DNA of 64,000 bases, from the sequence record OZ035810.1; one strand, given 5' to 3'. Under the pieces are notes generated by a model. It was not told the origin of the DNA, did not search any database, and saw only the letters and a list, made by a program, of their open reading frames with translations. This document shows positions 2,522 to 23,400 of the stretch, in pieces (within the stretch, counting starts at the first letter, position 1; every line of letters starts with the position of its first letter). The translations under genes were made by a program, and so were the position numbers. Source of the stretch: Gamaleyavirus AN24P2.

Positions 2522-4792
2522 ATGGAACACCAAGACACTTTTAAGCCTTTACCAGACCCGGCTCAATCAGAGAAGTTAACGGACTGGAAGAAGGAACCAA
2601 GTATCCAATTACTGAAGGGTGATTTGGAATCAGCTAAACCTGCTCACGATGCAATCATGGCACAGATTCGTGAGTGGAATGATCTTATGGAAGTTAAGGG
2701 TAAGGCTAAGCCACCAAAGGTGAAGGGACGGTCACAAGTCCAACCTAGACTGGTTCGCCGTCAGGCAGAATGGAGATATGCTCCATTGTCTGAACCATTC
2801 CTCTCTTCTAACAAACTCTTTAAGGTAACTCCGGTTACTTTTGAAGATGAATTAGCTGCACGTCAAAATGAACTGGTTCTTAACTACCAATTCCGTACCC
2901 AGCTTAATAGAGTAAAGCTGGTAGATGATTACGTGCACAGTGTTGTGGATGATGGTACTGGTATTGCTCGTATTGGCTGGGAACGTAAGACTGTTAAGAT
3001 TAAAACAGAAACTCCAGTATTCCAGTTGTATCCAATTGAGAACCAGGAACAAGCAGATGTTCTTCAACAGGCTCTACAGCTTCAGGCAGAAAATCCCCGT
3101 GAGTATGACGAGACAATGCCAGAGGATATTAAGGAAGCTGTTAACTACTTTAATGAAACTGGTGAAGCTACTTATGCAATCCAGACTGGGGTTACTGAAG
3201 TAGAAGTAGAGAAAGCACTGGTTAACAGACCTACCGTTGAAATGCTTAATCCTAATAACGTAGTTATTGACCCAAGCTGTAATGGTGATTTGGATAAGGC
3301 TCTGTATGCAGTTATCTCCTTTGAGACATGCAAAGCAGACCTTATGAAAAACAAAGACCGTTATCACAACCTAGATAAAATTGACTGGGAAAGTTCTAGT
3401 CCTATTACTGACCCAGACCATGAAAGTAAAACCCCTAGCGACTTCCAGTTTAAGGATGCACTACGTAAGAAAGTAGTTGCTTATGAGTACTGGGGATTCT
3501 ATGACATTAATGATGACGGTTCACTGGAACCAATTGTTGCTACCTGGATTGGTTCTACTCTTATTCGTATGGAGAAAAACCCATTCCCTGATGGTAAGTT
3601 ACCTTTGGTAGTTGTTCCCTACATGCCCCGTAAACGTGAACTCTTCGGTGAAGCTGATGCTGAATTGTTAGGAGATAACCAAGCAATTCTCGGTGCAACT
3701 ATTCGTGGAATGATTGACCTGCTGGGTCGTAGTGCAAATGGTCAACGTGGTTATCCTAAGGGAATGTTAGATACACTTAACCGTCGTCGATATGATGATG
3801 GACAAGACTATGAATATAACCCAATGCAAGGTAACCCTAGTCAGGCCATTATGGAACATAAGTTCCCCGAGTTACCTCAATCAGCAATAGTAATGACTCA
3901 GATGCAGAACCAGGAAGCTGAATCACTAACTGGTGTTAAAGCATTTTCCGGTGGTGTAACTGGTTCAGCTTATGGTGATGTAGCTGCTGGTATTCGAGGT
4001 GCACTTGATGCAGCATCCAAACGGGAGATGGCAATTCTTCGTCGATTAGCTAAAGGTATGGCAGACATTGGTACTAAGATTTGTGCAATGAATGCTGTGT
4101 TTTTATCTGAGAAAGAAGTAGTACGTATTACCAATGAGCAGTATGTAGAAATTAATCGTGAAGACCTTAAAGGTAATTTCGACATTGAGGTTGATATTAA
4201 TACTGCTGAAATTGATAACCAGAAATCTCAGGATTTGAGCTTCATGGTTCAAACATTGGGTAATACGGTTGACCAAACTATTACATTATCTCTTGTAGCA
4301 AAGATTGCAGAGCTTAAACGTATGCCAGACCTTGCTCATGAGTTACGTAATTGGAAACCACAGCCAGATCCTATGGAAGAACAGCTTAAGCAGTTAGCAA
4401 TTCAGAAAGCACAACTAGAGAATGAAGAGTTGAAAAGTAAGATTGCACTTAATAATGCTAAGGCTAAAGAAGCTGCTTCCAGTGGTGACCTTAAAGATTT
4501 GGATTATCTGGAACAGGAATCTGGTACTAAACATGCCCGAGATATGGAAAAACAAAAAGCACAATCTCAAGGAAACCAAAACCTTCAGATAACTAAGGCA
4601 TTGACAACACCCGTTAAAGAAGGGGAAACTACCCCCAACATATCTGCTGCTGTTGGATATAATACTTTGACTAACGGGAACTCTATACCAGAACGTGATT
4701 TAGCTGCTCAACAAGACCCGGCTTACTCACTTAGTTCCCAATACTATGACCCTAGCCAAGACCCAGCATCGGCTCTTGGTATGAACCTATAA
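2522..4792 (+). CDS. portal protein
   Basis: 756 aa; size and position upstream of scaffold-like and major capsid genes match N4-type head module. Confidence 0.75.
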
Positions 4793-4805
4793 GGCAGACC
4801 TTCAC

Positions 4806-5150
4806 ATGAGTAAAGAATCAACAATCGCTGGACTGGAACATCGACTAGAAGCTGCTAAAGGTGCAGTTGCACATGCAGAAGATGTACGTAAACTTCTGGA
4901 GAATCCACTGTTCCGTAAAGTAATTCTTCGCCAATTCTGTGTAGAAGATTGTGCACGTTACGTACAAGAGTCTGGTGACCCACTGCTTGAACCTAATAAC
5001 CGTGCAGATGCACTAAACATGGCTCAGGCTGCTGGTCACTTACGTCGTTGGCTCGACCTCGCCATTCGTATGGGCGAAAACGAAGCTGACGTTATTCTAC
5101 AGGTAGAAGAAGAACTCGATGCAGTTCGTGCTGAACCTGAAGACGAATAA
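4806..5150 (+). CDS. hypothetical head-module protein
   Basis: 114 aa ORF tightly packed between portal and acidic scaffold-like gene. Confidence 0.55.
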   Translation: MSKESTIAGLEHRLEAAKGAVAHAEDVRKLLENPLFRKVILRQFCVEDCARYVQESGDPLLEPNNRADALNMAQAAGHLRRWLDLAIRMGENEADVILQVEEELDAVRAEPEDE

Positions 5151-5169
5151 TTAACCGGAGATATTTCCT

Positions 5170-6390
5170 ATGACTACGGAAGCTGCAACCACAGCTTCCG
5201 ACATTCTCGCAATGTCGGATGATGAGATTCTGAATATGGAAGCCCCAGCAGTTATCGCTGAGGAAGACACTTCCACTCAGAACAACCCTGAAACCAACGG
5301 CGTACAGACTCCTGATGAAGAAGTTGACCCACCTGCTGTTGAAGACCTACCAACCGAAGAAACCTCCCCAGAAGCCGAACCAGATGCAGAAGATTCAGCA
5401 AATACTTTAACTTCTGATAAAGTTGATGATAAAGTTATTGACACAGAAGTTGATAGTAACGGCGAGCCGATTACTAAAGCTGAACCTTCTACTACTGAAC
5501 CAGGCCAGGAACAGAAAGAAGAAGGCAAACAGTCTGAAGGTCTGCCTGCTGACTTCAACTATAAGGAAGGTTATGAGAAGTTGATGGCTCCTTTTAAAGC
5601 TAACGGCAAAATGATTACTCCCCGTTCACCGGAGGAGGCCATTAGCCTGATGCAGATGGGTGCTAACTATACTCGTAAGATGCAAGAACTTCAGCCATAC
5701 CGTAAGGTAATGCTGATGTTACAGAACAACGGCTTAATGGATGAGGACAAACTTTCTTTCCTGATTGATCTGGATAAAAAGAATCCGGAAGCCATTAAGA
5801 AGTTGCTCAAAGACTCTGGTACAGACCCTCTGGACTTTAACCCAGATGAGGAAATTAACTACCAGGGTGGCAATCACCGTGTTACCGACACCGAAGCAGA
5901 TTTTGCAACCGAAATTGACGACTTAAAGTCTACTCAAGAAGGACAAGCTACATTAGGTGTTATTAGTTCGACATGGGATGCTGCCAGTAAAGATGCTCTT
6001 TACCAGAACCGTGGCCTACTTCAGACTATTCACGAACAACGTGAGAATGGTATTTATGACACCATTGCAAACGAAGTGAATCGTCTCCAGATGTTAGGTC
6101 AGATTCCGGTTGGTACTCCGTTTATTCAGGCTTACAACCACGTCGGTAACCTTCTTGCACAGCAAGGAGCATTTAACCGAGTGGCTAAGCCTGAACCGGT
6201 ACAAACAGTTAAACCAGTGGTTCAGCCGGTAGTGCGTGTAGCACAGCCTAAGCAGACTCTGGCTAACAGTGAGCAAGCTAAGGCAGCTTCCCTTAATCGA
6301 GCTGCTACACGTAAAGCAACACCTATTGTAAACCCACTCGCTATGAGTGATGAAGATTTCGCTAAACTCCCAGTACCGGGTAGTCTTTAA
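5170..6390 (+). CDS. acidic head-assembly protein (scaffold-like)
   Basis: 406 aa; Glu/Asp/Pro/Thr-rich N-terminal third; RBS GGAG upstream; directly precedes major capsid gene. Confidence 0.55.
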   Translation: MTTEAATTASDILAMSDDEILNMEAPAVIAEEDTSTQNNPETNGVQTPDEEVDPPAVEDLPTEETSPEAEPDAEDSANTLTSDKVDDKVIDTEVDSNGEPITKAEPSTTEPGQEQKEEGKQSEGLPADFNYKEGYEKLMAPFKANGKMITPRSPEEAISLMQMGANYTRKMQELQPYRKVMLMLQNNGLMDEDKLSFLIDLDKKNPEAIKKLLKDSGTDPLDFNPDEEINYQGGNHRVTDTEADFATEIDDLKSTQEGQATLGVISSTWDAASKDALYQNRGLLQTIHEQRENGIYDTIANEVNRLQMLGQIPVGTPFIQAYNHVGNLLAQQGAFNRVAKPEPVQTVKPVVQPVVRVAQPKQTLANSEQAKAASLNRAATRKATPIVNPLAMSDEDFAKLPVPGSL

Positions 6391-6406
6391 ACAGGAATAA
6401 GATGAT

Positions 6407-7609
6407 ATGTTAAACTATAACGCTCCAGTTAACGGTCAGAAATCTAGCATTGATGGTGCTGGTTCCGACCAGATGAATACCTTTTATTGGCTGAAGAAAG
6501 CTATTATTCAGTCCCGTAAAGACCAGTACTTCATGCCACTGGCTAACACTATTAACATGCCTAAGAACTACGGTAAGACTGTTAAGGTGTATGAGTACGT
6601 TCCACTGCTTGATGATAAGAACATTAACGACCAGGGTATCGATGCTAATGGTGCTACCATCGTTAATGGTAACCTGTATGGTTCTTCTAAAGACGTCGGT
6701 AACATCACTTCTAAACTGCCTCTGCTGACAGAGAATGGTGGTCGTGTTAACCGTGTAGGTTTTACTCGTCTGTCTCGTGAAGGTTCCATCCATAAGTTCG
6801 GTTTCTTCTACGAATTTACTCAAGAGTCTCTGGACTTTGATTCCGATGACCAACTGAAAGAACATCTGTCACGCGAACTGATGAATGGTGCTGTGCAGTT
6901 GACTGAAGCCGTTCTCCAGAAAGACCTGCTGGCTGCTGCTGGTACTGTACTGTATGCAGGTGCTGCTACCTCCGATGCCACCATCACTGGTGAAACTTCT
7001 ACCCCGTCTGTAGTTTCTTATAAGAACCTGATGCGTCTTGACCAGATTCTCACTGAGAACCGTACCCCGACTCAGACTACTATCATCACTGGTTCTAAAC
7101 TGACTGATACTAAAGTACTTGGTGGTACTCGTGTAATGTATGTTGGTTCTGAATTGGTTCCAGAATTGAAAGCGATGAAAGACCTGTTCGGTAACAAAGC
7201 ATTCATTGAAATTCAGCACTATGCTGATGCTGGTACTCTGATGAATGGTGAAGTTGGTTGTATCGATAAGTTCCGTATTATCCAGGTTCCAGAGATGCTG
7301 CATTGGGCAGGTGCAGGTGCTCAAGCTACTTCTAACCCGGGCTACCGTTCCTCTATGGTTAATGGTCAGGAACACTACGACGTATTCCCGATGCTGGTAG
7401 TTGGTGATGATTCCTTCTCTACCATTGGCTTCCAGACTGACGGTAAGTCCGTTAAGTTCTCTATTATGACTAAGATGCCTGGTCGAGAAACTGCTGACCG
7501 TAATGACCCGTATGGTGAAACTGGCTTCAGTTCCATCAAGTGGTACTACGGTATCCTGGTTAAACGCCCAGAACGTCTGGCTATGATTAAGACTGTTGCT
7601 CCTCTGTAA
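6407..7609 (+). CDS. major capsid protein
   Basis: 400 aa; position after portal/scaffold; codon usage typical of a highly expressed gene; strong hairpin downstream. Confidence 0.8.
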
Positions 7610-7623
7610 TAGTCCGAAATAAA

Positions 7624-7652
7624 ACAAGGGGGACATTAGTCCCCCTCTTAAC
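7624..7652. terminator. stable hairpin after capsid gene (putative terminator)
   Basis: aagggggac-atta-gtccccct stem-loop; the U-tract is weak on + and better on -. Confidence 0.4.
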
Positions 7653-7682
7653 AAAATTAGTTGAACCACAGGAAATATTAAC

Positions 7683-8318
7683 ATGAGCATTAACGATAAA
7701 CCGACCGCTGGCGTAGACGTGAACGTGCAGGGCAACGAAGATACCGTTAACGATATTGCAATGCCTAGTGAACTTGAGGTTCTTAAGCAACGTGCAACAT
7801 TGATGAATATTAAGTTCTCTAACAACATCTCCGTTGAAAAACTCCGTGAGAAGATTGAAGCTGCACAAGCAAAAGATGAACCAGTAGTAGAAGAAGCTGC
7901 TATTAACCCATTGGGTGAAAAACAAGAAGCAGGTGTTAAGAAGATGACTCTGGGTCAGAAGATCCGTGCAGAACAGACTCGACTGATTCGTGTACGTATT
8001 CAAAACCTTGACCCTAAGAAGAAAGACCTGCCTGGTGAGATTATCACCGTAGCTAACGAATATATGGGTACTGTACGTAAGTTTGTACCGTTCGGTGAAG
8101 TCACTGACAACGGTTATCATATTCCGTACTGTATCTATGAGTTCCTTAAAGAGCGTAAGTTCATCAACATTACGACTCGCAAAGGTAAGAATGGCTTACC
8201 GGATATCCGTGCAACAGAAGCACGAGAGTTCTCCATTGAAGTACTGCCACCGCTGACTGAAGCAGAACTGGCTCAACTGGCTCAAGCACAGATTGCTGCT
8301 GGTAGCCTGAACGATTAA
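7683..8318 (+). CDS. virion-module protein
   Basis: 211 aa ORF with ATG start in structural gene run. Confidence 0.5.
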   Translation: MSINDKPTAGVDVNVQGNEDTVNDIAMPSELEVLKQRATLMNIKFSNNISVEKLREKIEAAQAKDEPVVEEAAINPLGEKQEAGVKKMTLGQKIRAEQTRLIRVRIQNLDPKKKDLPGEIITVANEYMGTVRKFVPFGEVTDNGYHIPYCIYEFLKERKFINITTRKGKNGLPDIRATEAREFSIEVLPPLTEAELAQLAQAQIAAGSLND

Positions 8319-8339
8319 CGTATAAGCTACAGTTCAACA

Positions 8340-8377
8340 CGGCTCACTGGGGTAACTCCGTGGGCCGTTTCTTTTTG
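8340..8377 (+). terminator. rho-independent terminator
   Basis: acggctcac...gtgggccgt stem followed by tttcttttt. Confidence 0.6.
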
Positions 8378-8394
8378 AACCAAGAGGAATGATT

Positions 8395-9231
8395 ATGTCT
8401 TGTTCTGCTGAGGTAGAAGCTAACCGACTCCTAGTAGAGTTAACTAAGGGTGATGACTTTACTCTGCCCAATGTTGATATGTCCGGTCCTGCATGGGATA
8501 TCCCAGGTGGAGATACTTCCCCAATCTTTGGTGCTATTGATAAAGTAACCAATGAGTCACTCACTACTCGTGAAGTAGGTGGTAGTGGTACGTTTGATGC
8601 ATTAATGGAATCTGCACACAATCATCTCAAAGCCGAGTTTAAAGCTAACCGTATTACTGGTGGTGAATATACCAAAGCGTACATTGCTATGATGGAAGCC
8701 TGTATGAGTAATGCTGTTCAGTTCTTACTTGGGCGTGACCAAGCATACTGGGCTGCTGCTATGGCACAGATTCAGGCAGTTACTGCACGTGTTGGTTTAG
8801 CAACGGCTAAGGCTCAGTTTGTACTTGCTAAGGTACAGGCACTGTCTACTAAGTCTGAGTATGCCTTAACTAAGCTGAAGCTCTCTAATGAGGGTCAAAA
8901 TTACTGTGCTGCAAAATTCAATGTGGATGAGATTCTTCCAGCTCAGGAACGTTTACTTAAAGAACAGTATGAAGTACAGCGTGCACAGACCATGGAAACA
9001 CGTTCAGACTCATTGCCTATTGCTGGTTCTATTGGTAAACAGAAAGAATTGTACTCTCAACAGATTACTTCTTATCAACGGGATGCAGAAGTGAAGGCAT
9101 CCAAGCTGTTTACTGATGCATGGATTACTCAGAAGACTATTGATGAAGGTTTGAATCCACCTAATGGTTTTACTAACGCAAGTATTGATACCATCTTGGA
9201 CAAGCTGAAATCTAACAACGGGCTGAACTAA
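8395..9231 (+). CDS. virion structural protein
   Basis: ORF 8389..9231; second ATG at 8395 has better spacing from AGAGGA. Confidence 0.5.
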
Positions 9232-9232
9232 T

Positions 9233-11887
9233 ATGGGCTTATTCAGTGGGAAGACTAAAGTATACGTAGCATCCTCTGTCTACAATATGGCAGGGGATAT
9301 ACATAAGCGTCCAAACTATATGAAGACTGTAGTTATCGGTAAGATTGTTGCTGATACTGGATTTACTATGGCAGATACTATCTCTGATAGTTACCTGAAC
9401 GGACCGGGTACTCGTATGCGATTGTTCTCTAGCTGGAGTAAGAATCACTATGACTCTATCGTTGGTATGGCTGGTTCCTCATTGGGTGTATTAGCCAAGA
9501 TTGACCCTGCTGTTATAGAGGGTCAAATTACCCCTCCTGCCGGGGAATCTGTCTATGTTCAGGCAGCAAATATTGGCTTTGCTGATTTTGAGCAGTGGTG
9601 TGACCAGTATCTTTATGAGAATGCCCCAAGTCGAATCATGGAACGATTCGACATAGACATTAACGAGGACACTAATGAAATTACTATGACCTCCTTAGAT
9701 GGAGGCTCTACTATTACATTTACACCTACCAACTTTGAACCAGGTGCTCTGTATCTCTATGCTGATTACACATTCTATAAGTCACCTACTACCTACCCAC
9801 CCGTAGAAGGTCCGACTACTGTCTATGATAATGAAGATGATTTACCGTCTACCTTGTTGTGGACTACTGTCTCCAGTGATACGACAGCTAATACAACTAA
9901 CCTTACTAAGACTATACAGACTCATTCGGTTTATTCTGACGGTAGACCGGATGAGGACAGTACTGTTACTGAACCAAGTGTGGATAACTGGAACTCTTAC
10001 GTTAAGGTTTATCGTAGGGGATTCACTGAGAAACCAGATGGTGTAACTGTAGTTGTATCTGACAGGGTAATGACTCATAAAAAGTTTGGTGAGATTCAAT
10101 CCAGTACTTCTGTAACTACTAATGTAGTTGATATAGGTAATGGTGTTACTCGTACAGATACGATCACCACTACTACTGAGACACTGGTTCGTAAGTATTC
10201 CTCCCAGACTACTCATACTGACACTGAAATGACTGCTGTTAGTACTCCCAAGATGCTCATCTATAAGCATAACTCTGGCAATACTGTACTAGACTCATTA
10301 TTTGAGACTGAAGCTACTGATAACCGATTCTATCCATTTATTCCAATCAGGAATGATAAACAATGGGTAGAGAATGACCCAATTTACCCACACTGTAAAA
10401 AGGCTCTTTATAAAGCCACTGGGGGTAAACTTAATAAAGTAACAGCAGAGCTTAAGAAAAATAATGATATAGGGGATATACAGTACATCTACGGTACATT
10501 TGGTGTATCTCTTAATACTCCAGAGGATACTGCTAAGGAATACATCTATCGTTTTTTTCAGATGGCTACCGAAGCGTTTCCACCTGACCCAACATACCCA
10601 ACTCTGGAATCAGTAATTGCAGGATACCAGGCAGCCAATGATGCAGTTGATGCATATGTAGAATGGTGGAACAGGCAGGAAGGTCATATTGTTGGAACAC
10701 CTCCCCCCTTGCCAGAATACCCTGTCATACCTAAGCGAGAGTTTAGGGTACATAGTAATAAGCAGTACAAATACGACATGACTATTAGCTGGAATTATGT
10801 ATTTGAAACTACTCACTCAGGTAAAGCATGGTCTGGTGCTAAACAAGGGCAACTTCGAGCCAGGTATGCAGGGGATATAACTCTTACACGCAAGAACATA
10901 CGTACAGCTAGTAACTCTGGTTCAGCTAAAAGATTAGAAGTTACTCCTACGTTTTACTCTATGCAGGAATATGAGTTGCTTTGGCAAGATGGTAATAACA
11001 CCTATCGTAAACTTAGGGTGCTGGGCTTACACCATAGCAACAGGGTTTATAAAAACAAGTCAGTGAATATTGATGTTGCTGAAGCTATGGGTGATGCAGA
11101 GGAGAGTGGATTCATAATCCCCCTACATACTAATATCTATCGTTCTATGTCACTGGTTCGTGGTACTCAGTTATCTACTGCTTGCTCCTACTTAGTGATG
11201 AACTCATACAAAAAGGTTAAGAAGAAGTGGTATCAAACTTCTGCCTTTAAGATTGTGGTGGTTGTGGTTGCTGTAGTTGCATCCGTATTTACTATGGGTG
11301 CAGGTGGTGCTGGTATTCTTGGAGCTTACGGTGCAGTCGGTGCATCACTCGGTTTTGTTGGATTGGCTGCCGTAATAGTAGGTGCTGTAGCAAACACCAT
11401 TGCTGCAATGATTCTGATATCCATCACTACTAAAGTAGCTACTTCACTGTTTGGCGATAAGCTAGGTTTTATCATTGCTGCTATTGCCTCGATGGTAGCC
11501 ATGAATGTTGGTACTGCTTTATCTACTGGTACGTCCTTATCTTCTCTAGCCGGTGAAATGATGAATGCCCAAAACATCATGCAGCTTACTAGTTCGGTTG
11601 GTAATGGTATTAGTCAGTATATTAATGCATCCACGGCTGCTACTATTCAGAAAGCTGAGAAAGTAATGCAGCAGTACAATACTGATATGATGGCAATCAA
11701 TAAGCAGTATGAAGAGATGTTTGGTACTGCTGGGCAGGGTGTAATTGACCCTATGCAATTCGTGTCAATGGAGTCGTTGGATTCATTCCTTTCACGTACT
11801 CTTATGACTGGTTCGGATATAGCTGACATGTCCTTAAGCATGATAGGTAACTACTCCGATATGACTCTCAATACTGACCTTGTTTAA
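9233..11887 (+). CDS. large virion protein with C-terminal Gly/Ala-rich multi-transmembrane region
   Basis: 884 aa; residues about 665-770 form consecutive hydrophobic GA-rich segments (VVVVVAVVASVFTMGAGGAGILGAYGAVGASLGFVGLAAVIVGAV...). Confidence 0.55.
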   Translation: MGLFSGKTKVYVASSVYNMAGDIHKRPNYMKTVVIGKIVADTGFTMADTISDSYLNGPGTRMRLFSSWSKNHYDSIVGMAGSSLGVLAKIDPAVIEGQITPPAGESVYVQAANIGFADFEQWCDQYLYENAPSRIMERFDIDINEDTNEITMTSLDGGSTITFTPTNFEPGALYLYADYTFYKSPTTYPPVEGPTTVYDNEDDLPSTLLWTTVSSDTTANTTNLTKTIQTHSVYSDGRPDEDSTVTEPSVDNWNSYVKVYRRGFTEKPDGVTVVVSDRVMTHKKFGEIQSSTSVTTNVVDIGNGVTRTDTITTTTETLVRKYSSQTTHTDTEMTAVSTPKMLIYKHNSGNTVLDSLFETEATDNRFYPFIPIRNDKQWVENDPIYPHCKKALYKATGGKLNKVTAELKKNNDIGDIQYIYGTFGVSLNTPEDTAKEYIYRFFQMATEAFPPDPTYPTLESVIAGYQAANDAVDAYVEWWNRQEGHIVGTPPPLPEYPVIPKREFRVHSNKQYKYDMTISWNYVFETTHSGKAWSGAKQGQLRARYAGDITLTRKNIRTASNSGSAKRLEVTPTFYSMQEYELLWQDGNNTYRKLRVLGLHHSNRVYKNKSVNIDVAEAMGDAEESGFIIPLHTNIYRSMSLVRGTQLSTACSYLVMNSYKKVKKKWYQTSAFKIVVVVVAVVASVFTMGAGGAGILGAYGAVGASLGFVGLAAVIVGAVANTIAAMILISITTKVATSLFGDKLGFIIAAIASMVAMNVGTALSTGTSLSSLAGEMMNAQNIMQLTSSVGNGISQYINASTAATIQKAEKVMQQYNTDMMAINKQYEEMFGTAGQGVIDPMQFVSMESLDSFLSRTLMTGSDIADMSLSMIGNYSDMTLNTDLV

Positions 11888-11900
11888 CAGGAGAATCCTC

Positions 11901-12344
11901 ATGGATTTGTCATTCTTTACGGGCAACCCAACTCCACAGCCAGCGGCTATGTCTTGGATGCCCAATAATAATCAGAACTTTAATACCCCTGCTATGAATT
12001 ACATCCCAGGTGCATCCATTGGTATGGGTACAAATGCAGGAGTATCTTCTCCTACTTCTTTCTTGTCTGGTTCAGCTAATCAGTTGGGAATGAACGTACC
12101 TACCTTCCAGTTAGGGCTTGGTGCACTTGGTTCATTGGCTAATATCTATAGTGGTTTCCAGGCCAATAAGTTAGCCAAAGACCAGTTGAACTTTGCTAAG
12201 AGTGTTACTAACACTAACCTGAATAACCAGATTAAGTCTTATAACACTGCTCTGGAAGATCGTGCTCGTAGCCGTGCTACAGCAGAGAACCGTGACCAGT
12301 CTACTGCTGATGCTTATATTGCAGCTAATAAATTAACTCGTTAA
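11901..12344 (+). CDS. virion-module protein
   Basis: ORF 11880..12344 opens with TTG; ATG at 11901 preceded by AGGAGA. Confidence 0.45.
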   Translation: MDLSFFTGNPTPQPAAMSWMPNNNQNFNTPAMNYIPGASIGMGTNAGVSSPTSFLSGSANQLGMNVPTFQLGLGALGSLANIYSGFQANKLAKDQLNFAKSVTNTNLNNQIKSYNTALEDRARSRATAENRDQSTADAYIAANKLTR

Positions 12345-12356
12345 TAGGAAACCATC

Positions 12357-14321
12357 ATGGCTCAAATTACATGGCGTAATGTTGATGCACCTAACTTCTC
12401 TGGAGTTGGTGACAGCATTCGCACATTTGGAAGCATGATTGGTAACGCCACCTCCGGCTTAAGTGATGCACTGGGTAATTTCCAGAACGCTGCCAAGCAG
12501 GAGGCTGGCAATGCCGTCATGATGAATGCTATGCAGTATCAAGACCCAACTGAGTATCGTAATGCTTTGGCGTCTGGTGCACTGTTTCAGGGTGTTGACC
12601 CTTCTCTGATAAGCCAACGTACTCTCCAGAATCTGGATGAACGAGCAGGTACATTATTGAGTCAGCAAGGTCAACAAGGAACCAATGACTACAATAACTA
12701 TCGTTTTGGTCGATTACAGAAAAATGATTCTGCGTTAGATAATGCTTCTCCCGCTATTCGTTTATTGTCTGAAGCTTACCAGTCTGGTGACCAGAATCGT
12801 ATTAATACTGCATTGGGTCAGACTCGTGAGGCATTATCTACGCTCCCAGCTGACCAACAGTTAGAATTGTTAGGTAGTTTACAAGGACAGGGTAGTGCTG
12901 CTATTAATCAGGCGAGCAATCGTTTTGATTTGGGTGTTGCTCAACGTAATGATGCCGATAGTCAGGCAGCTATGGGTGTAATGGCACAGATTACCCGTGG
13001 TGCTGAGAACCCTAATGATGCCCGTCTGTTGGCAGAAGCATACAGTAAGAACCTGTCTCCAGTTGCACAGGCACGCTTGCAGGGATTACTGGCTAATGCT
13101 TACCCGGGTGTTTACGGTAATGGTGTAGGTGCTACGTCTGCTCCTGGTACTGCTGGTACTCGTCAGGGTTCACCTTACGATGTTACTTATCAGTTTGCTG
13201 GTACATCTACTCCTATTACTCAAATGAGTATTGGTGATGTAATTAAACACCAGGATGGTATGAAATCGAACCAGGGTGCTTCCCCTGTTGGTGCATTCCA
13301 GATTAACCAAGCTACTCTGAAAGACTTCGCTCCCAAAGTTCTTGGTTCAGATTGGCAAAGCCAGCCTCTTTCTGCTGAGAACCAGGATAAGATTGGTAAG
13401 GCTATCTTCGAGTCTCGTAAGAATGGCAACCTTAAAGATACCTGGGCTGCTCTTCCTAACTCTACCCCAGGTGCTTATAAGGACATGACTTGGGAAGAGA
13501 TTAAACCTGTTATTGCCCAAGCTGAAGTAGGGGCTGACCCACTCGCTATGGTTCAGAATAATCAAGGCAATCAGGCAGTATCTACCTTGGCTCAGGGTAT
13601 GATTGGTACACGTTCTATGCAGGATAATACCGGTAGTCTTAATACTGACTTCCTTGGTACTGTCACTGATAATACCCCAGTAGGTGAGATTGCTAACCGT
13701 CTGTTGGAAGGTGATTTTAAAGGTGCTGACCGTAACTGGGTACTGAACCGACTGAACGATATTTCTCAACGTGGAAATATGTCACCAGCTATGGCTGCTG
13801 CTGTTATGCAACGTGCACAGACTGGTGTACCAGAAGGTTATATTAGTCGTGCTATTGATGCAGTTAACCCATTCATTACCAACGAAGCCGGTAATGGTAT
13901 GCGTCTTAATGACCGTCAGGTAGAACAGTTAATTGAGGGTGTGAAACGGGGAGAACCACTGGAAGGTAGTGTTCGTAACCTAGGTCGTGCTCAGGCTATG
14001 CAGAATATTCAGGCAGCACAGACTGCATATGATGCTGCTGTAGCTGCACTGACAAATACCCAGAATAAGATTAACACCGGGCAAAGTGGTCTTACTGCAC
14101 TGTTACCTGCACGTCAGGAAGCTGTTAATAAAGCTGCTGCAATGCTACAAGCTGCACAGGCACAAGTACAGGCTGACCCAGCTAACCTGGCTCCAAAAGG
14201 TTTTCGGTCACAGGCTAGTGTGGACAGGGCACGAGCAAAGGAAGATGAAGAACGTGCTGCACGTTACCTACGTCAGGCACAAGGATTGCCTGAGTATATG
14301 CAACCAAGACAAAATCGGTAA
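12357..14321 (+). CDS. virion-module protein (internal/ejection protein candidate)
   Basis: 654 aa; Gln/Ala/Asn-rich; immediately upstream of vRNAP gene. Confidence 0.5.
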   Translation: MAQITWRNVDAPNFSGVGDSIRTFGSMIGNATSGLSDALGNFQNAAKQEAGNAVMMNAMQYQDPTEYRNALASGALFQGVDPSLISQRTLQNLDERAGTLLSQQGQQGTNDYNNYRFGRLQKNDSALDNASPAIRLLSEAYQSGDQNRINTALGQTREALSTLPADQQLELLGSLQGQGSAAINQASNRFDLGVAQRNDADSQAAMGVMAQITRGAENPNDARLLAEAYSKNLSPVAQARLQGLLANAYPGVYGNGVGATSAPGTAGTRQGSPYDVTYQFAGTSTPITQMSIGDVIKHQDGMKSNQGASPVGAFQINQATLKDFAPKVLGSDWQSQPLSAENQDKIGKAIFESRKNGNLKDTWAALPNSTPGAYKDMTWEEIKPVIAQAEVGADPLAMVQNNQGNQAVSTLAQGMIGTRSMQDNTGSLNTDFLGTVTDNTPVGEIANRLLEGDFKGADRNWVLNRLNDISQRGNMSPAMAAAVMQRAQTGVPEGYISRAIDAVNPFITNEAGNGMRLNDRQVEQLIEGVKRGEPLEGSVRNLGRAQAMQNIQAAQTAYDAAVAALTNTQNKINTGQSGLTALLPARQEAVNKAAAMLQAAQAQVQADPANLAPKGFRSQASVDRARAKEDEERAARYLRQAQGLPEYMQPRQNR

Positions 14322-14327
14322 TACTAA

Positions 14328-14351
14328 TAAAAGCCCTTCGGGGCTTTTTTC
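14328..14351 (+). terminator. rho-independent terminator
   Basis: aagccc-ttcg-gggctt hairpin followed by tttttt. Confidence 0.65.
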
Positions 14352-14415
14352 TTACACTGGCTTACTGTAGAGTAAGCTTCTTATATACGATATAAGTTTG
14401 AACAGGAAACATGCT

Positions 14416-17400
14416 ATGTCAACATTTGACCGTCTGGCAGGTTTCGCAGACAGCATCACTAATGCTAAGCAAGTCGATGTCTCTACTGCTACCTCTCAGA
14501 AGCAAGCTGCACAAGGGCAAAGCCCTTTCCAATTAACCCCAGAGAATGCTTACAATCTCCAAACTGGACGAGTAGGTAATTTAGGAATCGGTGCGTTCGA
14601 ACCAGGTTCCCTCCAAGCTGATTTCACTCAGGCTTCCCCATTAGAAATTCTTAATAAATATGGTAATGAGCAAGGTCTACAGATTCTTAATAGCCGAGCT
14701 AATGCTGCTGATGCTGTACGTCAGGACTTATCTAAACAACGTACTAACGCAGAAGCATTTGGTGATACTCTTTCTGGTGTTGGTCTTGGTGTTGCTAATA
14801 CCCTGGGGGGCATTGCTGCTCTTGGCACAGGTTTGGTCAATGATAATGCCGGGGCATCCATTGCTTCCGGGATGGATTGGTTGAATGAAGGTGTGCACAA
14901 TCTCCAGTCTGATGCACTGAATGTTACCCGTAAGGTTGTTCAGAATCAGAACCAGATTTCTGCTCAAAAGAACCAGAAACTTTACGAACAAGACATCAAA
15001 AATGGGGAGAGCAGCTTGGTTGCCTCCCTGTCTCGCATTGGTCGTGATGCTTTTGATTCTGTTGCTAATACACTTGATAACGGTATGGCTGCTACTGATG
15101 GGCTAAGTGAAGGTGTTGGTTCCCTCTTTACTGGTGGTCCACTTATCCGTGGTGTATCTGCACTCGGCAAAGTAATGGTAGGTGGTGATAAAGCCGTTAA
15201 GGGTATTACCTTAGCTGCTGAGTTAGGTTCTCGTCCTGCACAGGTTGCATTGTCTGCTGGTCGTGTTGCTGCACCTGCTATTGCAATTGGTGGTATGGAA
15301 GCTGGTGGTGCATACCAACAGACTGCTTCTGAAATCATGAAGATGTCACATCAAGAATTAGCAAGTAAGTCTCCTGTTTATCAACAACATATTGCTGATG
15401 GTTTATCTCCTGATGAAGCTCGTCGTCAGACTGCATCTGAAACAGGTATCATTGCTGCTGGCTTAACTGCTCCGGTTGCTGCTGCTACTGGTCCACTGGT
15501 ATCTAAATTTGAACTTAATCCACTTAAGGTAGGTTCACTGGTTGGTGCTGGTTCTAACATGCTGCGTGAAACTGTAGAAGAAGGTATCCAGTCTGGTACT
15601 AGTCAGTTTGCACAGAACAAAGCAATTCAAGGTAATGTAGATGCTAAACGTGACTTGCTTAAAGGTGTTGGTGAACAAGCAGGTCTTGGTGCACTTTACG
15701 GCTTCGGTAGTGCTGGGGTTGCTCAAGCTCCAGGTGCAACTGTTAAAGCTGTTGGTGCTACTGCTGGTCCAGCCCTTCGTACTACTTTAGCCGGTGCTTC
15801 CCTGGTTGGTAGTGCACTAGCAAAAGCTGCATCTCCTCTTACTAACATCCTGGTTCAACGTGGTGAAGAAGTTGCTAAACGAAATGAACAAGCATCCCCT
15901 GTAGCTGATGCTACGGTTAATGCTGCTGCACAGGAAGCTGCTGCTCAGGCAGAACAAGCACAAGCAACTGTACAGGAAGCAGTAGATGCAATGGATATTT
16001 CTCCGGAAGAGAAAGCTGCTGCTACCCAGTATGCTGCTGACTTAACTCAGGCAATGAAGTTTGACCCGGTAGAATTGGAACAAACTAACCCAGCAATCCG
16101 TGAAGCTGTTTCTGGTTCCACTAACCGTGTTGAAGCTATTCAGAAGATGGCTGACCTGGTTAATACTGCTGAGGATCCTAACGTTCAAATGGAAGCTGCA
16201 ATCCAGATGTATGACAATATCATGTCTATGGATAGCTTCATTAACCGTGACCCGGGTGCTCTGGCTAATCTGGAACAAGGTTCTCCTGCTGCTGCGATTG
16301 TAGACCAGTTCTCCGGTCTGATGGCTAACGTACAGAATACTCCGAAGGTACTCCGTGCATTTCGTGCCATCCATTCCATGATTCAGGAACAGGCTGAAGC
16401 GGGTAAATTGAAAGCTACTGAAGAAGCTAACCAAGCTCAGGCAAACAACATTGCTATGGCTGCTGATGTGTCTCCAGAAGTTCTGGATGTAGAATCAGTG
16501 AACATGGTTCTGAAGCACGCAAGTGAAGGTAAGATTACATTAGGGAATCGTCAGCGTGCTGCCCTGCAATCTGCTGCTGCTCTATTGCAAGGAGCACGAG
16601 AATTTGACGCTAAAGCAGAAGAACTGGGCTTACGTCCTCAAGACATTGTTAGTAAACAAATTAAAACCGACGAATCTCGTTCTAATGAAGGCCAGTACTC
16701 TGCGTTGCAACATGCTAAACGCATTCGTTCTGCGTACAACTCTGGTAACTTCGATTTGGCTTCCGCTTATCTCGACGACTTTATGAAGTTCGCCCAGCAC
16801 ATGCAGAATAAGGTCGGAGCGTTGAATGAGCATTTGATTTCTGGGAATGCGGATAAGAATAAGTCTGTCCATTATCAGGCTCTTACTCCCTCCCGTGAAT
16901 GGGTACGTAGTCGTACTGGCCTCGGTGTCAATCCGTATGATACCAAGTCTGTTAAGTTTGCCCAGCAAGTAGGACTGGAGGCCAAAACCGTAGCTGATAT
17001 TGTTAATGCACTTGCTACGGCTTACCCGGAGCTTAATGTTTCTCATGTTAAAGTTACTCCATTAGATTCACGTCTGGACAAGCCTGCTGCCCAGGTGGTT
17101 AAAGAGTTCCGTCAGGGCAATCTTGATGCTGCTCAATCCCAACAGACCAATGAACCAGTGAATCAGGTTGATGAAACTCCTGTTACAAAACAGGAACCAG
17201 TTACCCCTACTGTACAGACTAAACCCTCTGTTAGTGAAGCTGTTAAAACAGAACCTACTATTAAAGAGTCTAAACCACAGTCTGTAAAAGAACCTGAGAA
17301 CCAGTCCGAAAAGCAGGATGCTGCCATCACTAATGAGGATACCACTCAGGAAGTAGCTGAAACTAAAACGGAAATGGAAGCAGTGTTCCCTGTCTATAAC

Positions 17401-20400
17401 AATGACAAGACACCGAGCCAGTTCCTTAAAGCATTTGCTCTGCCGGAAGAACCTAAGACTCGTACCATTGGTTCTGAATCTCCTTTGACTGATGTTAAGC
17501 AAGCACTGTCTTCTGCTGCTCGCTTTGAAGCATTCACACAAAAAGAAAATAACGCTCTCACAAGTGATGTGATGAAACGTTATCAGGACTTACTGGGCTT
17601 TGGTGAAACTCTGAAGACTACTCTTTCTGACCGTCTGGCTAAGTTCCTTGCTAACAAAAATGTTGGTAAACGTTTTGCAGAAGGTACTGAAGCTAACCGT
17701 TGGGTAGGTGGTAAACTGCTGAATATCGTTGAACAAGACGGTGACACCTTTAAGTTCAATGACCAGTTGTTAGAGACTGCTGTACTTGCTGGTCTGCAAT
17801 GGCGACTAACTGCTACACAGAATGCTGCTGTTAAAGACATGAAAGACATAGCTGCTATTACTGGTGTAGAAGCATCCCTGTTACCTGAAGGTATTCTGGC
17901 TGAATTTGAGAATGCTCAGACTCTGGTTGAAGCTACTAGCTCACTGGCTCAAAAGATTGAATCCTACTGGGGTTTGAATCGTAATCCTAATGCACCACTG
18001 GGCTATACCAAGGGTATCCCAATGGCAATGGCTACAGAGATTCTGTCTTCCCTTATTGAGATGGGTGAAGTTAAAGAGTCTATGCTGGATGTGTCTGAAA
18101 TTGACCCAGCCTCCGATAAGACTGTAGGTCTGTACACCATTGAGAAGCTGGATGATAACGATGCCATTAACAATTTCCCTACTGCTATTGAGGAAGCTGT
18201 CCTCGTAGAACCAGAAGAGAAAATGTACTTTGGTGATGATATTCCTTCCGTGGCTCAAACTCAGTTACGTAATCCGGCTGTTAAGAATACCCCTGAACAG
18301 AAAGCTGCTCTTAAAGCAGAACAGGCTACTGAGTTCCGTGTACACATGCCTATGGTTAACTTCTATGAAGCATTAGGTCGTGACAACATTCTGGAACTGA
18401 TGGGTGCTGGTACGCTTAATCCTGAACTACTGAACGTAAACACTGCTAAATCACTGGAAGGTAAGAACCTGTCAGTGTCTATGGCATATGATTCCTTGTT
18501 TGGGGTAATCAATCAGGTTCAGGAACAGGAGAATGGACTGGATACTCCTATTCACTATGGTTATAACATGACCCGTGTAGGTCGTATGCAGATGCTTGGT
18601 AAGAATAACCCACAATCCAGTAAGCTGGTGCGTGAAGCAATTCTGCCAACCTTCTCTACTATTGACTTGAGTAATGAAAACAGCCAAACGTTCTCAGACT
18701 TCCAGTTAGGTCTGGCTCAGGCATTAGGCATCAAGGTACATAACATGTCCCGTGAAGCTATGTCTGAAAAGCTGACTAAAGCTCTGGAAGGTAACCTGAA
18801 ACCTGCTGTTGATATGATGGTTGAGTTTGATAAGTCTGGTCACTTACCAGTTGATGCAGTGGATATTCTGAAGACGTCTCTTGGTGGCGATAAATCCTTC
18901 GTAGCTCTTATGGCTCTTATGGAATATGCCCGTTACCTGAACAGTGATGACCGTGCCAACTTTAATACCCCACTGTACGTTGAAGCCGATGGTGTAACTA
19001 ACGGACCAATCAACGCAATGGTATTAATGACGGGTGGTAAGTTCACTTCAGACTGGGTTAAGAATACTGCTAAAGGTGGTCTGTTCTTTGGTAAAGCTGG
19101 TAAGACTATGAATGAACACCGTTCACAGGATGACAGTGTTGACTTGTATGAAGCATCTACCAACAGTCTGCAACAAGCTCTGAATGAGTTACGTACTACT
19201 TACCGTAACAACGTTCCGGTTATGAACCAGATGAATCATCTCCAAAAGTTAATGGACCTGTTCATTAAAGACTTTAACCTGAACGAAGACGGTACTCTGG
19301 ACCTGAAGCGTGGTATCGCTAAAAACCCACTGACTATTACCATCTATGGTTCCGGTGCTCGTGGTATTGCAGGCAAGATGGTTAGTGCAATTACTGATAC
19401 CATCTATGAACGCTTCAGTGACGTTCTGCAAGCTCGCGCTGCTGACCCTAGCATTTCCCCAGCTATGGCAATGTTTGGTAAAGAGGCTGCGTCTGAGACT
19501 GATGCTCAGGCTATGCTGGATACTTTCCTTACATCTATGGAAGCACTGACTGGTAATGTTCCAGTTATGCGTAAAGGTGAGCTGTCTATTCAACAAGTAG
19601 AAGGTGCTCTGACTGGTAAGTTAGACCCCCAGAAGTTTACTGTATCTGGTAATGCTCTGAAGAACCTGCAAGAGAACATGCTTCACTTGTTCGTTGAACC
19701 AATGCGTACTGGTATTCGAAATACTGTTGGTGAAGGTCTAATGCACTCTACTGAGAACTTGCAGAAGGCTACCCAGATTCAGTCTCTGGTATTGCAAGAC
19801 ATGTTCCAGCAAGCAGTACAGACTAAGCTGGCAGAAAAAGAAAAAGACCCAACATGGAAGAAGGGTGATTTCTTAACTCAGAAAGAACTGAACGAAATCC
19901 AGGAATCATTGTCTCCACTGGCTCCAATGATTGAGACTGGTTCGCAGACTTTCTACATTGCTGGTAGTGAGAATACTGACGTTGCTAACCAAGTACTGGC
20001 TACCAACTTAGATGACCGTATGCGTGTGCCAATGAGCATCTATGCTCCTTCACAGGCAGGTGTTGCAGGTATTCCATTTATGACCATTGGTACTGGCGAT
20101 GGCATGATGATGCAGACCCTTTCTACTATGAAAGGTGCTCCGAAGAATACCCTGAAAATCTTTGATGGTATGAACATTGGTATCAATGACATCACTGATG
20201 CAAGTCGTAAAGCTAACGAGGCTGTATATACTTCCTGGCAGGGGAATCCTATCAAGAATGTTTATGACTCCTTTGCTAAGTTCATGAAGAACGTAGACTT
20301 CAGCAAACTGTCCGATGAAACTAAACAGGCTATCGCTAAGTCTGCTTTGGAATATGACCAGCGTGAGGGTGCTACTGATGCCTTATTACGTGCAGGTGCT

Positions 20401-23400
20401 GAACAGATTGAGCGTAACTTGCGTAACATTGCTCTTGGTGTAGATATTCGCCATAAAGTAATGAACCAGGTACAGACTACTGTTGACCAGATGGCTGCTG
20501 TAGGTGCTCCTTATGTGAACAACGGTAAAATCTCTCTGGAAGGTCTGACTGTAGACCAGCAAGTAGCTAAGCTGAACGAATTGTTTGATGCTGAATTAAA
20601 CAAACGTCGTGATGCAGTACGTGCTGCTAAAGCAGAACCAGTGAAAGAAGTACCAGCAATTGAGCAGGTTGGTCGTGTACTGAAGTCTGGTGTACGTCTG
20701 CTGTCTAATACTGCTATCTCTAAGCTGGCTAAAGAGATGTCTCAGGAACAACAAGCAGTACTGAAAGAAGTACAGAAATCCCCTGCTGCTAAAGACTACA
20801 AGGTTGTCTATGGTACACCTGCCCAACTGGATGCTTACGCTATTGAGAAGAACATTACTCGCCCAGCACCGGAAGATATTGAAGCTGCTGAAGCAGGTAA
20901 TGCATACGGCTGGACTAACTTCGAAGATAAGACCATTTATCTAGTTACCCCTTCCTTAGAAACTCTGGTTCATGAATTGGTACATGCTTCTACTTTTGAA
21001 TCTGTACTGACTCACTATGAAGGTACTCCTAATGAAGCAGTTCAGAACATTGAAGACCTGATGAACCAGTTCCGTGCTCTGGATGTTAAGGATGAATCTC
21101 CGGCAGTACGTGAAGCGTATGCTGATGCACTTAATACCATTAATGGTCACTTGTCCAATGGATTCATTGAGCCATCAATGGCTAAAGCTGCTGCACTTAA
21201 CGAGTACATGGCTTGGGGCTTAACCAACCGTGAACTGATTAGTAAGCAGAAGAAAACCACTGCACTTAAGACTATGGTTCAGGCTGTGTATGAAGCAATC
21301 AAGCGTCTGGTATTTGGGCGTAAGAAAGCACCAGCTAATGCAGATGATATGTTCTCCGGCTTACTGTTTAACTCTGCTGTAGTAATGCGAGGACAAGCTC
21401 CTACTGCTGCTGTAGCTAAAGATACTACCCTGTTCCATAACAAAGCATACGGTGATAATACTCGTCTGGAAGAATTAGGAAAAACCTTCGATAAGTTAAT
21501 TACTGACTACATTGGTTCAGAACCAGTACAACAAGTAATTCGTAAAGGTAAGTTCTCTGATGCAGTAGTGAATGCAACTAAAGTAACCCGTGATGTTCAG
21601 GCTCATGGCTTCGCTATGAATATGCAGGAACAGCGTCTCTTTACTAACATTGTTGCTGCTCTGGCTACTGAGGCTGCTATTAACCCTGCTGCTTTGGCTC
21701 GTGCACAGGAATACTACACGCATGTTACTAAGAACCTGACTGTTGAAGCATTTATGGCTGACCCAGATAGTACTAACCCTGCTGACCGTTATTACGCTCA
21801 ACAGAAGTTCGATACCATCATGGGTGCTAACAATATTGAGTTTGATGCACAGGGACGTTCTTCCTTACTGCCTACCTTTGTTGGGCTGGCAATGGTAAGT
21901 GAAGAAGTACGTAAGGTACTGGCTGATATTCCTGTTATGAAAGCAGATAAGCAATCCGGTAATACAGTTGATGCAATGCTGACTAACATTGGTACTGCTG
22001 CAATGGCTAGTCTGAATGCTCGTGTAGCAGGTGATACCAAAGCTACTAATGTACAGGAAGGTATGGATGCACTGGCTCAAACAATCATGCAGACTAGCCT
22101 TAATGCACAGTCCTTTTATGATTCTGTTGCTACTCCTAGTGGTAATGCTATTGACCGTGCTAACCAGTATCTGGTGGACTCTATTGATGTATTGTCTACC
22201 CGTGCTTTAGAAGGTGCTCGTGAAGTTGCAGCTAATACCAAGAACCCGTTGGTTAAAGGTGCTGCTCATGCTGCACAACTGATTGCTGCTATTGCTACAG
22301 AGAAGAATGGTGAAATCGTAGCCGAAGGAGTTATGGCTGCAATGAACCAGGGTAAGGTATGGCAACCTTTCCATGACCTGGTTAATGACTTAACTGGTCG
22401 TACTAAGAGCAATGCTTCTGTGTATGATTTGATTAAGGCAGTTCGTGCACAGGTACAGGCTGACCGTCAACAATTCCGTGAACATTTGCCTACTACTATC
22501 GCATCTAAGTTCAGCCGTAAGCTGACTAATGATGAGTGGAAAGCAATGCACACTGGCATGGGTAAAACTGACTTGGCTGTCCTGCGTGACACTATGTCTT
22601 TGGCTGAAATCCGTGATTTGCTGTCGGACCAAAAGATTGTTGACCGTGAAGTGAATAAGCTGGAAGCAGATTTGCAGAAGCAAGCTGGACGTAACTGGCC
22701 TCTGATTAGTCGTAAATCTAAGCAACTGGCTCAGTTTATGATTAATGGTACAGTTGGTAATAACTTGCTGCGTAATGCTACTGCAATTTCTCGTTTACTG
22801 GGTGAACGTAAGACTACTAGTTCTATTGTAGATGTAGCTAAACTGGATAAACTGATTACCCTGTATGCACTGGAAGCAATGAGTAATACTGACCGTGAGA
22901 TGCTATCTTCACTGGCTCAAACAGAAGTTGATGGGATTGATTTTGCTACTTCTTACCTGGTTGGTCAGCGTAAAGATGAAATGGCTAAAGCTAAGTCTGA
23001 CATGCGTGCAACCCTGAACCAGTACAAAGGTTACATTCCTGGTGAGACTAAACAAGGTGTTAACCTGATTGTTGCTGAAGACAGTCAATTTGCTGATTTG
23101 ATTGAGAAGTCCTATGTGCGACTGGGTACTTATCAGGGTAGCTCTGCTAATCGTGGTCCAGCACGTAGTTACTACTTTGCACCAGTACAGGCACAGGCTC
23201 CATTCTCACAGGGTATCTTACAGAACGTTCGTAATACTGCTGGTGGTGTAGACCTTGGTACAGGCTTTACGATGGGTACAATGGTAGCTGGTCGTATCAC
23301 TGACAAGCCTTCCGTAGACCGTATCACTAAAGCACTGGCTCGTGGTGAACGTGGTAATGAACCACTGCTGCCTGTGTATGATGACAAAGGTAATGTAGTT

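Follow-up and report, generated by a model that had tools for sequence, protein, structure and literature searches.

The hydrophobic module of a Gamaleyavirus virion protein is probably the cork of an N4-like tail plug

The DNA analyzed here (the window) is a stretch of 64,000 nucleotides from Gamaleyavirus AN24P2 (sequence record OZ035810.1), a G7C-like, N4-like coliphage of the family Schitoviridae. One of its genes encodes a protein of 884 residues, which is probably the tail plug of this podophage, with a hydrophobic module rich in alanine, valine and glycine corking the tail tube. It belongs, without special features, to a plug family known since recently, the knot of which was described in 2025-2026. 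The coordinates of the gene, of its parts and of its neighbors are given in Table 1.

The identity of the protein is suggested by the following comparisons. It aligns over its full length with gp53 of phage N4 (884 residues against 885, with 54% identity) and matches phrog_2220 with an expectation value (E) of 0 over profile positions 1-847 of 850. A phmmer search of the Protein Data Bank (PDB) sequences with the protein returned two chains, 9yft_FA, named 'Gp53' (E=0), and 9ze4_M (E=2e-14), the match to the latter covering residues 610-867. Chain 9ze4_M, named 'N4 gp53-like protein', is the plug gp74 of phage DEV according to the data-availability statement of that study (PMC12892993). The globular core of the AN24P2 protein has a fold in common with a solved plug. 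The order of the genes, gp54-gp53-gp52-gp51 and the virion RNA polymerase (vRNAP), all on the + strand, is that of N4. At the DNA level, the plug gene is 100% identical to that of Escherichia phage vB_EcoP_CU10EC and about 89% identical to those of about fifty other G7C-like coliphages.

No other family claims the C-terminal part of the protein. Searches of Pfam at E≤10, with either the whole protein or residues 661-884, gave no match beyond a chance one to Chordopox_A30L at 0.09. Residues 661-884 found the gp53 family, and no other PHROG family or PDB entry, in the PHROGs and the PDB sequences. As the module is unmatched elsewhere in these collections, it can be regarded as a hallmark of the Schitoviridae plugs and not as a shared membrane domain. 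Two other affiliations were considered and rejected. A tape-measure-like protein of the tail lumen is represented neither among Pfam matches to residues 661-884 (E≤10) nor by any PHROG except 2220, and kinship to holins, needles or pore-forming families fails because the C-terminal module is absent from such families in the PHROGs and PDB searches.

The plug of phage N4 has been described structurally. Cryo-electron microscopy (cryo-EM) identifies gp53 as the tail plug, present in one copy (Bellis et al., Nat Commun 2026; PDB 9YFT; PMC13434306), and a passage of the DEV study credits this identification to structural studies of N4, citing Zheng et al. (Structure, 2025) (PMC12892993). The protein has been detected in N4 virions by liquid chromatography-mass spectrometry as well as by cryo-EM (PMC13434306). 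Residues 29-56 and 670-716 of N4 gp53 form a 'hydrophobic knot' of six short helices, which corks the tube made of 12 gp54 subunits, with a symmetry mismatch of 12:6:1 among tube, sheath and plug (PMC13434306). The bulk of gp53 is outside the tube, and its last ~160 residues are disordered in the tail lumen (PMC13434306). It is held by gp65, a sheath protein that binds the receptor and clamps the plug with its domains D9-D10, and it is present on full and emptied particles alike (PMC13434306).

The residues of the N4 knot can be followed into the AN24P2 protein one by one. When the family is aligned, residues 29-56 of N4 gp53 correspond without gaps to residues 29-56 (64% identity), and N4 residues 670-716 correspond, also without gaps, to residues 674-720 (66% identity). 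By this mapping, the first half of the hydrophobic region (nucleotides 11252-11392) corresponds to the knot segment, and the luminal tail would begin with its second half (residues 721-772). The protein further resembles N4 gp53 in its length (884 versus 885 residues), in the position of its gene between those of the tail tube and gp52, and in the possession of a β-feather, a set of very long strands; it has also kept the C-terminal motif of N4 gp53, as well as its hydrophobic module and the basic collar. The two differ in that their phages belong to different genera, Gamaleyavirus and Enquatrovirus, and in that the plug described here is known from sequence. An AlphaFold2 model of the monomer, built on an alignment of 39 sequences, is confident over residues 6-665, which make up a mixed core and the four feather strands (residues 211-234, 241-269, 272-302 and 305-334). 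These strands have high predicted local distance difference test (pLDDT) scores, and the two helices predicted within residues 29-56 have a pLDDT of ~80.

An earlier reading of this DNA from its letters alone (the preliminary description) had pointed to a Gly/Ala-rich, multi-transmembrane region at the C-terminus of the protein. Both the open reading frame (ORF) of 884 codons and the hydrophobic stretch within it are real. The hydrophobic block proper extends over residues 673-765, just four of these 93 residues being charged, and compared with the rest of the protein it is enriched in alanine (20% versus 6%), valine (17% versus 7%) and glycine (14% versus 6%). It contains 17 small-xxx-small motifs, against ~4 expected. 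Hydropathy was calculated on the Kyte-Doolittle scale in windows of 19 residues with a transmembrane threshold of 1.6. Forty-three windows reach at least 1.6, every one of them starting within residues 667-747; outside this part, the protein does not go beyond 1.3. None of 5000 shuffled versions of the protein attained 43 such windows (mean 2.5, maximum 29). The hydropathy is concentrated in three cores, residues 674-692 (2.39), 711-729 (2.44) and 745-763 (1.87), which are preceded on their N-terminal side by a basic KKVKKK patch. The corresponding sums on the Hessa scale are 0.4, -0.6 and 1.9 kcal/mol. The protein thus has more than one segment of 19 residues or longer that is as hydrophobic as a transmembrane helix, and the term 'multi-transmembrane' can be kept as a description of hydropathy, not of location. 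As to its position, the module is near the C-terminal end, and a further 112 residues follow it. Tandem DNA repeats under the Gly/Ala codons of the module were looked for and none were found.

This property sets the plug apart from its neighbors. Among nine structural and ejection proteins checked, from the portal to the vRNAP (2522..24774), it is the sole one with sustained membrane-grade hydropathy. The orthologs of gp54, gp52 and gp51 have no window of at least 1.6, and the putative vRNAP has three isolated ones, near residue 3171. The peak values of the gp52 and gp51 orthologs are 1.04 and 0.68. Despite this low hydropathy of their orthologs, the N4 proteins gp52 and gp51 need detergent and form pores.

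Conservation was measured on an alignment of 28 sequences, extending down to 27% identity. Residues 1-70, 601-720 and 841-884 are the best-conserved blocks and the β-feather is the least conserved part. In the collar, N657 and W666 are invariant, and Y659, K663 and Y667 are conserved in at least 90% of the sequences. In the module, G707 and N721 are invariant as well, and conservation is 90% or higher at G694, G697, G703, A713, G717, G741 and G745. These positions include the spacings G703xxxG707, A713xxxG717xxxN721 and G741xxxG745, and such spacings of Gly, Ala and Asn are typical of tight helix-helix packing. The same three hydrophobic cores appear in the hydropathy profile averaged over the family, where the module has a mean of 1.35-2.0. 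Near the C-terminus, residues E847, F852, R855, T856 and G860 are invariant.

The module is widespread. A HMMER scan with residues 661-884 against 1.84 billion representatives of 50%-identity clusters (E≤1e-3) matched 842 representatives. In every full-length protein among the best 150 of these 842, the module forms the C-terminal end. Apart from fragments, the proteins among these best 150 have two main lengths, ~880-920 residues, as in the AN24P2 protein and in N4 gp53, which has the feather, and ~700-760 residues, as in DEV gp74, which lacks it; the module is kept in both. The distant gp33 of phage B2 (Ithacavirus, 775 residues) and VCO139_0057 of a Vibrio phage (702 residues) carry the same layout, consisting of an MGLFS N-terminus, a collar of the form 'NxYE..K.KWYQTGIFKV', a hydrophobic block of ~90 residues and a C-terminal tail.

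With the N4 structure as a guide, the arrangement and the action of the AN24P2 plug can be proposed in some detail. Residues ~1-665 would lie outside the tail tube, a dodecamer, at its distal end and would form a globular core and the β-feather. The short helices of residues 674-720 and 29-56 would pack into a compact knot that is lodged in the opening of the tube. For the tight packing of helices in this knot, the Gly/Ala faces, which are conserved, and Asn721 would be well suited, and the knot would keep the pressurized DNA and the ejection proteins inside. Residues 721-772 and the conserved C-terminal ~110 residues would reach up the tail lumen beside the stored copies of gp52. When the receptor is engaged, the plug would shift sideways, and the knot and the luminal tail would be pulled out in the manner of a ripcord. 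The release of gp52 (the outer-membrane channel) would come first, gp51 (the periplasmic tunnel) would follow, and the vRNAP and the DNA would be last. The ripcord was put forward as a hypothesis by the authors of the N4 study, who suggest that receptor binding shifts the plug sideways and that withdrawal of its C-terminus frees the luminal gp52 copies (PMC13434306); for AN24P2, we infer this step from theirs.

Several observations weigh against a plug of the N4 type in AN24P2. 1) In the AlphaFold2 monomer, residues 670-884 have a pLDDT of 25-50 and are drawn as long helices that form no knot, and for this reason the expectation that the protein folds as N4 gp53 does comes solely from sequence conservation. 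2) The hydropathy of the three segments (1.87-2.44) is above the usual need of a buried core, and an additional lipid-facing role is therefore possible. 3) Homologs of N4 gp64 and gp65, the partners that hold the plug, were not found by tblastn of the N4 proteins (E≤1e-3) against the window and the remaining parts of the near-identical CU10EC record (PQ435408.1). In the same search, the sole parts of this apparatus in common with N4 are the first ~100 residues of gp66 and, at 58% identity, gp67. The pair of gp65 and gp64 that marks an N4-type tail-gating complex is not seen here, so the gating geometry could differ from that of N4, and the partner clamping the plug must be a different one. It is presumably part of the G7C-type tailspike apparatus. 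4) No structure of the tail tip is known from any Gamaleyavirus; the map of phage Moo19 (69% identical) has only weak, unmodelled density there (PMC11654681). The cryo-EM support belongs to the N4 ortholog and covers the identity of the plug, its single copy, the knot, the C-terminus in the lumen and the retention on empty particles; what AN24P2 itself contributes is orthology, synteny, knot residues that map without gaps, and conservation throughout the family.

The preliminary description had further suggested that this virion protein is a membrane-inserting ejection or channel-forming protein, which could form the conduit through which the genome and the vRNAP are injected. Its presence in the virion stands by virtue of the orthology to N4 gp53. 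A part in ejection also stands insofar as the plug is a component of the apparatus that delivers the genome and the vRNAP, in which its most likely role is to gate the conduit and not to build it. The conduit itself is unsupported, as the ortholog is a single-copy plug, the equivalent residues of which close the tube as a knot, and as the N4 plug is still found on emptied particles (PMC13434306). One copy of three or four helices is unable to line a channel of ~35 Å for the DNA and the vRNAP, which disfavors the idea. In N4, the channel is assigned to gp52 in the outer membrane, to gp51, which forms a periplasmic tunnel of decameric structure, and to the N-terminal domain of gp50 (PMC13434306), and the next three genes here encode the orthologs of gp52 and gp51 and the putative vRNAP. 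The comparison with the ejection proteins of known podovirus systems, which had been recommended as a check, revealed no homology, whether to T7 gp14-16 or to N4 gp50-52. Proteins such as T7 gp14/gp15/gp16 and N4 gp52/gp51/gp50 act in the same delivery pathway as the plug and are encoded adjacent to it. Unlike the N4 plug, which is present in a single copy and is retained on the particle, ejection proteins of the T7 type are present in many copies, exit the particle and build a channel across the envelope.

A second use of the module after the tube has been opened is unlikely, although several properties of the protein agree with it. The dislodged module and the C-terminal tail might enter the outer or inner membrane of the host and act there as a pilot, an anchor or a nucleation site for gp52 and gp51. 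The plug has the only sustained transmembrane-grade hydropathy among the nine proteins checked, three cores of at least 19 residues with the KKVKKK patch on their N-terminal side, and conserved small residues resembling a glycine zipper, as well as an invariant Asn. Its luminal tail is strongly conserved though disordered in the N4 virion, and homologs are named 'membrane protein' in some GenBank records. A membrane-active module would explain both the unique hydropathy of the plug among these nine proteins and the conservation of its disordered luminal tail. Such a use would be analogous to that of the hydrophobic C-terminus of the tape-measure proteins of siphophages. The module has no homology to any known tape-measure or pore-forming family.

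A precedent for such a second use is found in the L-loops of the tail-knob protein gp9 of phage phi29, which were reportedly described by Xu et al. (Nature, 2016). In the mature virion, these loops resemble the plug in that hydrophobic helices fill the distal lumen of the tail, and after plugging the knob they exit to form a membrane-penetrating helix barrel (PMC6542822). This makes a secondary, membrane-active role after unplugging possible for the AN24P2 protein too. However, the phi29 plug consists of six loops within a tube-forming hexamer and not of a separate protein in one copy (PMC6542822), and gp9 has no similarity to the plug in sequence or fold. In emptied phi29 particles the L-loops are outside the tube as a helix barrel, whereas the N4 plug is seated again on emptied particles, which carry it with the tube sealed (PMC13434306). 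Furthermore, the one copy present per virion in N4 and DEV is too few for a channel of the size required by DNA. Lipid-bilayer recordings were made for N4 gp52 and gp51 (PMC13434306), which by themselves form pores in bilayers, and gp53 is not known to associate with lipid. If a second use were nevertheless true, it would couple unplugging to the first breach of a membrane and would make the plug a one-copy analog of the phi29 L-loops.

It is far less probable that the segments serve as an anchor during assembly, entering the inner membrane of the infected cell with the basic patch in the cytoplasm, so that assembly of the tail tip would begin at the membrane. The transmembrane-grade segments and the basic patch do fit the positive-inside rule, and the machinery that targets proteins to membranes should recognize such segments unless they are shielded. 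However, we know of no membrane-associated assembly signal in N4-like phages, and the transfer of multi-pass helices out of a membrane and into a tail would come at a high cost. Moreover, these residues are buried in the lumen of the tube, and not in lipid, once the N4 virion is assembled (PMC13434306). Least credible of all is a soluble, low-complexity Gly/Ala linker without specific structure, the alternative that the preliminary description itself had named: residues 688-707 are indeed Gly/Ala-rich and partly coil in the AlphaFold2 model, with low pLDDT, but the stretch as a whole is helical, hydrophobic and conserved, with a family-wide mean hydropathy of 1.35-2.0, nearly no charged residues and Gly and Asn positions that are invariant or nearly so down to 27% identity, and in the cryo-EM map of N4 the corresponding residues form ordered helices (PMC13434306).

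A plug formed by one protein copy can be compared with other devices that close the tails of podophages. DEV gp74 (PDB 9ZE4, chain M) is a homologous plug without a feather, held by another receptor-binding fiber (PMC12892993). It has the same C-terminal hydrophobic module and caps the tube of 12 subunits as a single copy. The identity between it and the AN24P2 protein is ~11-12% over structural alignments; DEV gp74 has 740 residues, and the fiber that holds it is composed of gp56, gp55 and gp54. The tail needles of P22 (gp26) and Sf6 are functional analogs, being distal plugs of podophages that retain the DNA and are freed on contact with the receptor (PMC11445570). They differ from the AN24P2 plug in that they are trimeric coiled coils with no hydrophobic module, and they are unrelated to it in sequence and fold.

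The main use of the finding is better annotation. In the GenBank records listed, the gene is mostly labelled 'hypothetical protein' and in a few cases 'membrane protein' or 'baseplate wedge protein'. It could be named tail plug, and its hydrophobic block could be described as a knot that corks the tube instead of as transmembrane helices. This relabelling extends to the 842 cluster representatives with the module. The G7C-like phages would then retain a plug of the N4 type without the clamping sheath of N4, and their tailspike apparatus would presumably have to gate it in some other way. Neither this difference in the clamp nor the role of the conserved luminal tail after displacement changes the current picture of infection by N4-like phages.

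Table 1. Parts of the tail-plug gene of Gamaleyavirus AN24P2 and the genes around it (positions in the window)
Feature	Position	Strand	Basis or remark
Portal	first in + strand run	+	followed by gp57-like gene
Major capsid protein	6407..7609	+	preceded by gp57-like gene, followed by gp55-like gene
Tail-tube protein, ortholog of N4 gp54	8389..9231	+	64% identity to N4 gp54; phrog_2050 virion structural protein
Tail-plug gene, 884 residues, ortholog of N4 gp53 and DEV gp74	9233..11887	+	phrog_2220
N-terminal helices, part of the knot in N4 gp53, residues 29-56	9317..9400	+	gapless N4 alignment; AlphaFold2 helices 29-40 and 46-55
Ser/Thr-rich 'β-feather', four very long strands, outside the tube, residues ~205-340	9845..10252	+	AlphaFold2 strands
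Basic/aromatic collar NSYKKVKKKWYQ, residues 657-668, just upstream of the hydrophobic block	11201..11236	+	conservation
Ala/Val/Gly-rich hydrophobic module, residues 665-772	11225..11550	+	hydropathy, composition, shuffle test; 68% identity to N4
Predicted knot segment, residues 674-720	11252..11392	+	gapless N4 mapping; core 1 and most of core 2
Residues 721-884, equivalent to the disordered part entering the lumen in N4	11393..11884	+	rest of core 2, core 3, long predicted helix 779-830, C-terminal motif
Ortholog of N4 gp52, in N4 the tail-lumen ejection protein and outer-membrane channel	11901..12344	+	59% identity
Ortholog of N4 gp51, in N4 the ejection protein of the periplasmic tunnel, 654 residues	12357..14321	+	49% identity
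Giant ORF of 3458 residues, placed like the gene of the virion RNA polymerase (gp50) in N4	14398..24774	+	size and gene order only; start codon unrefined

Some further observations concern the plug family and the genes next to the plug. The C-terminal motif of the plug, residues 847-884 (11771..11884), with the consensus ESxDxFLxRTLMTGSDIAxMSL, ranks with the best-conserved stretches in the family and belongs to the part of the protein for which the N4 tail lumen shows disorder. In Shigella phage B2, gp33 is a clear plug homolog of the gp53 family (tblastn E=2e-25), and the table of the paper on the Moo19 and B2 structures has 'N/A' for an N4 gp53-like protein in B2 (PMC11654681). On the opposite strand, an ORF of 84 residues (11326..11580, - strand) lies wholly within the coding region of the hydrophobic module; it has no independent support, and the codon composition of the coding strand most likely gives rise to it as a by-product.

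All of the genes from the portal to the vRNAP are named 'hypothetical protein' in the GenBank record. In the gp51 ortholog, a segment that is also conserved in N4 gp51, HQDGMKSNQGASPVGAFQINQATLKDFAPKV (residues ~295-330, nucleotides ~13240-13350), is similar to the lytic-transglycosylase motif of Slt70, 'QES...SPVGASGLMQI', and has an Asp where that motif has the catalytic Glu. A lytic-transglycosylase assignment is unsupported, as searches of Pfam (E≤10) and of the PDB sequences gave no lysozyme or transglycosylase match. None of the N4 ejection proteins appears to have peptidoglycan hydrolase activity (PMC13434306). The gp51 ortholog does match PDB chain 11mn_A, a '66 kDa protein' of 359 residues (E=3e-35), and the note for gp51 in the N4 record reads 66 kD VP. 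Finally, the ORF of the gp52 ortholog, when delimited mechanically, opens at a TTG at position 11880 and overlaps the stop codon of the plug gene; both the alignment with N4 gp52 and the GenBank annotation favor the ATG at 11901, which gives a protein of 147 residues.

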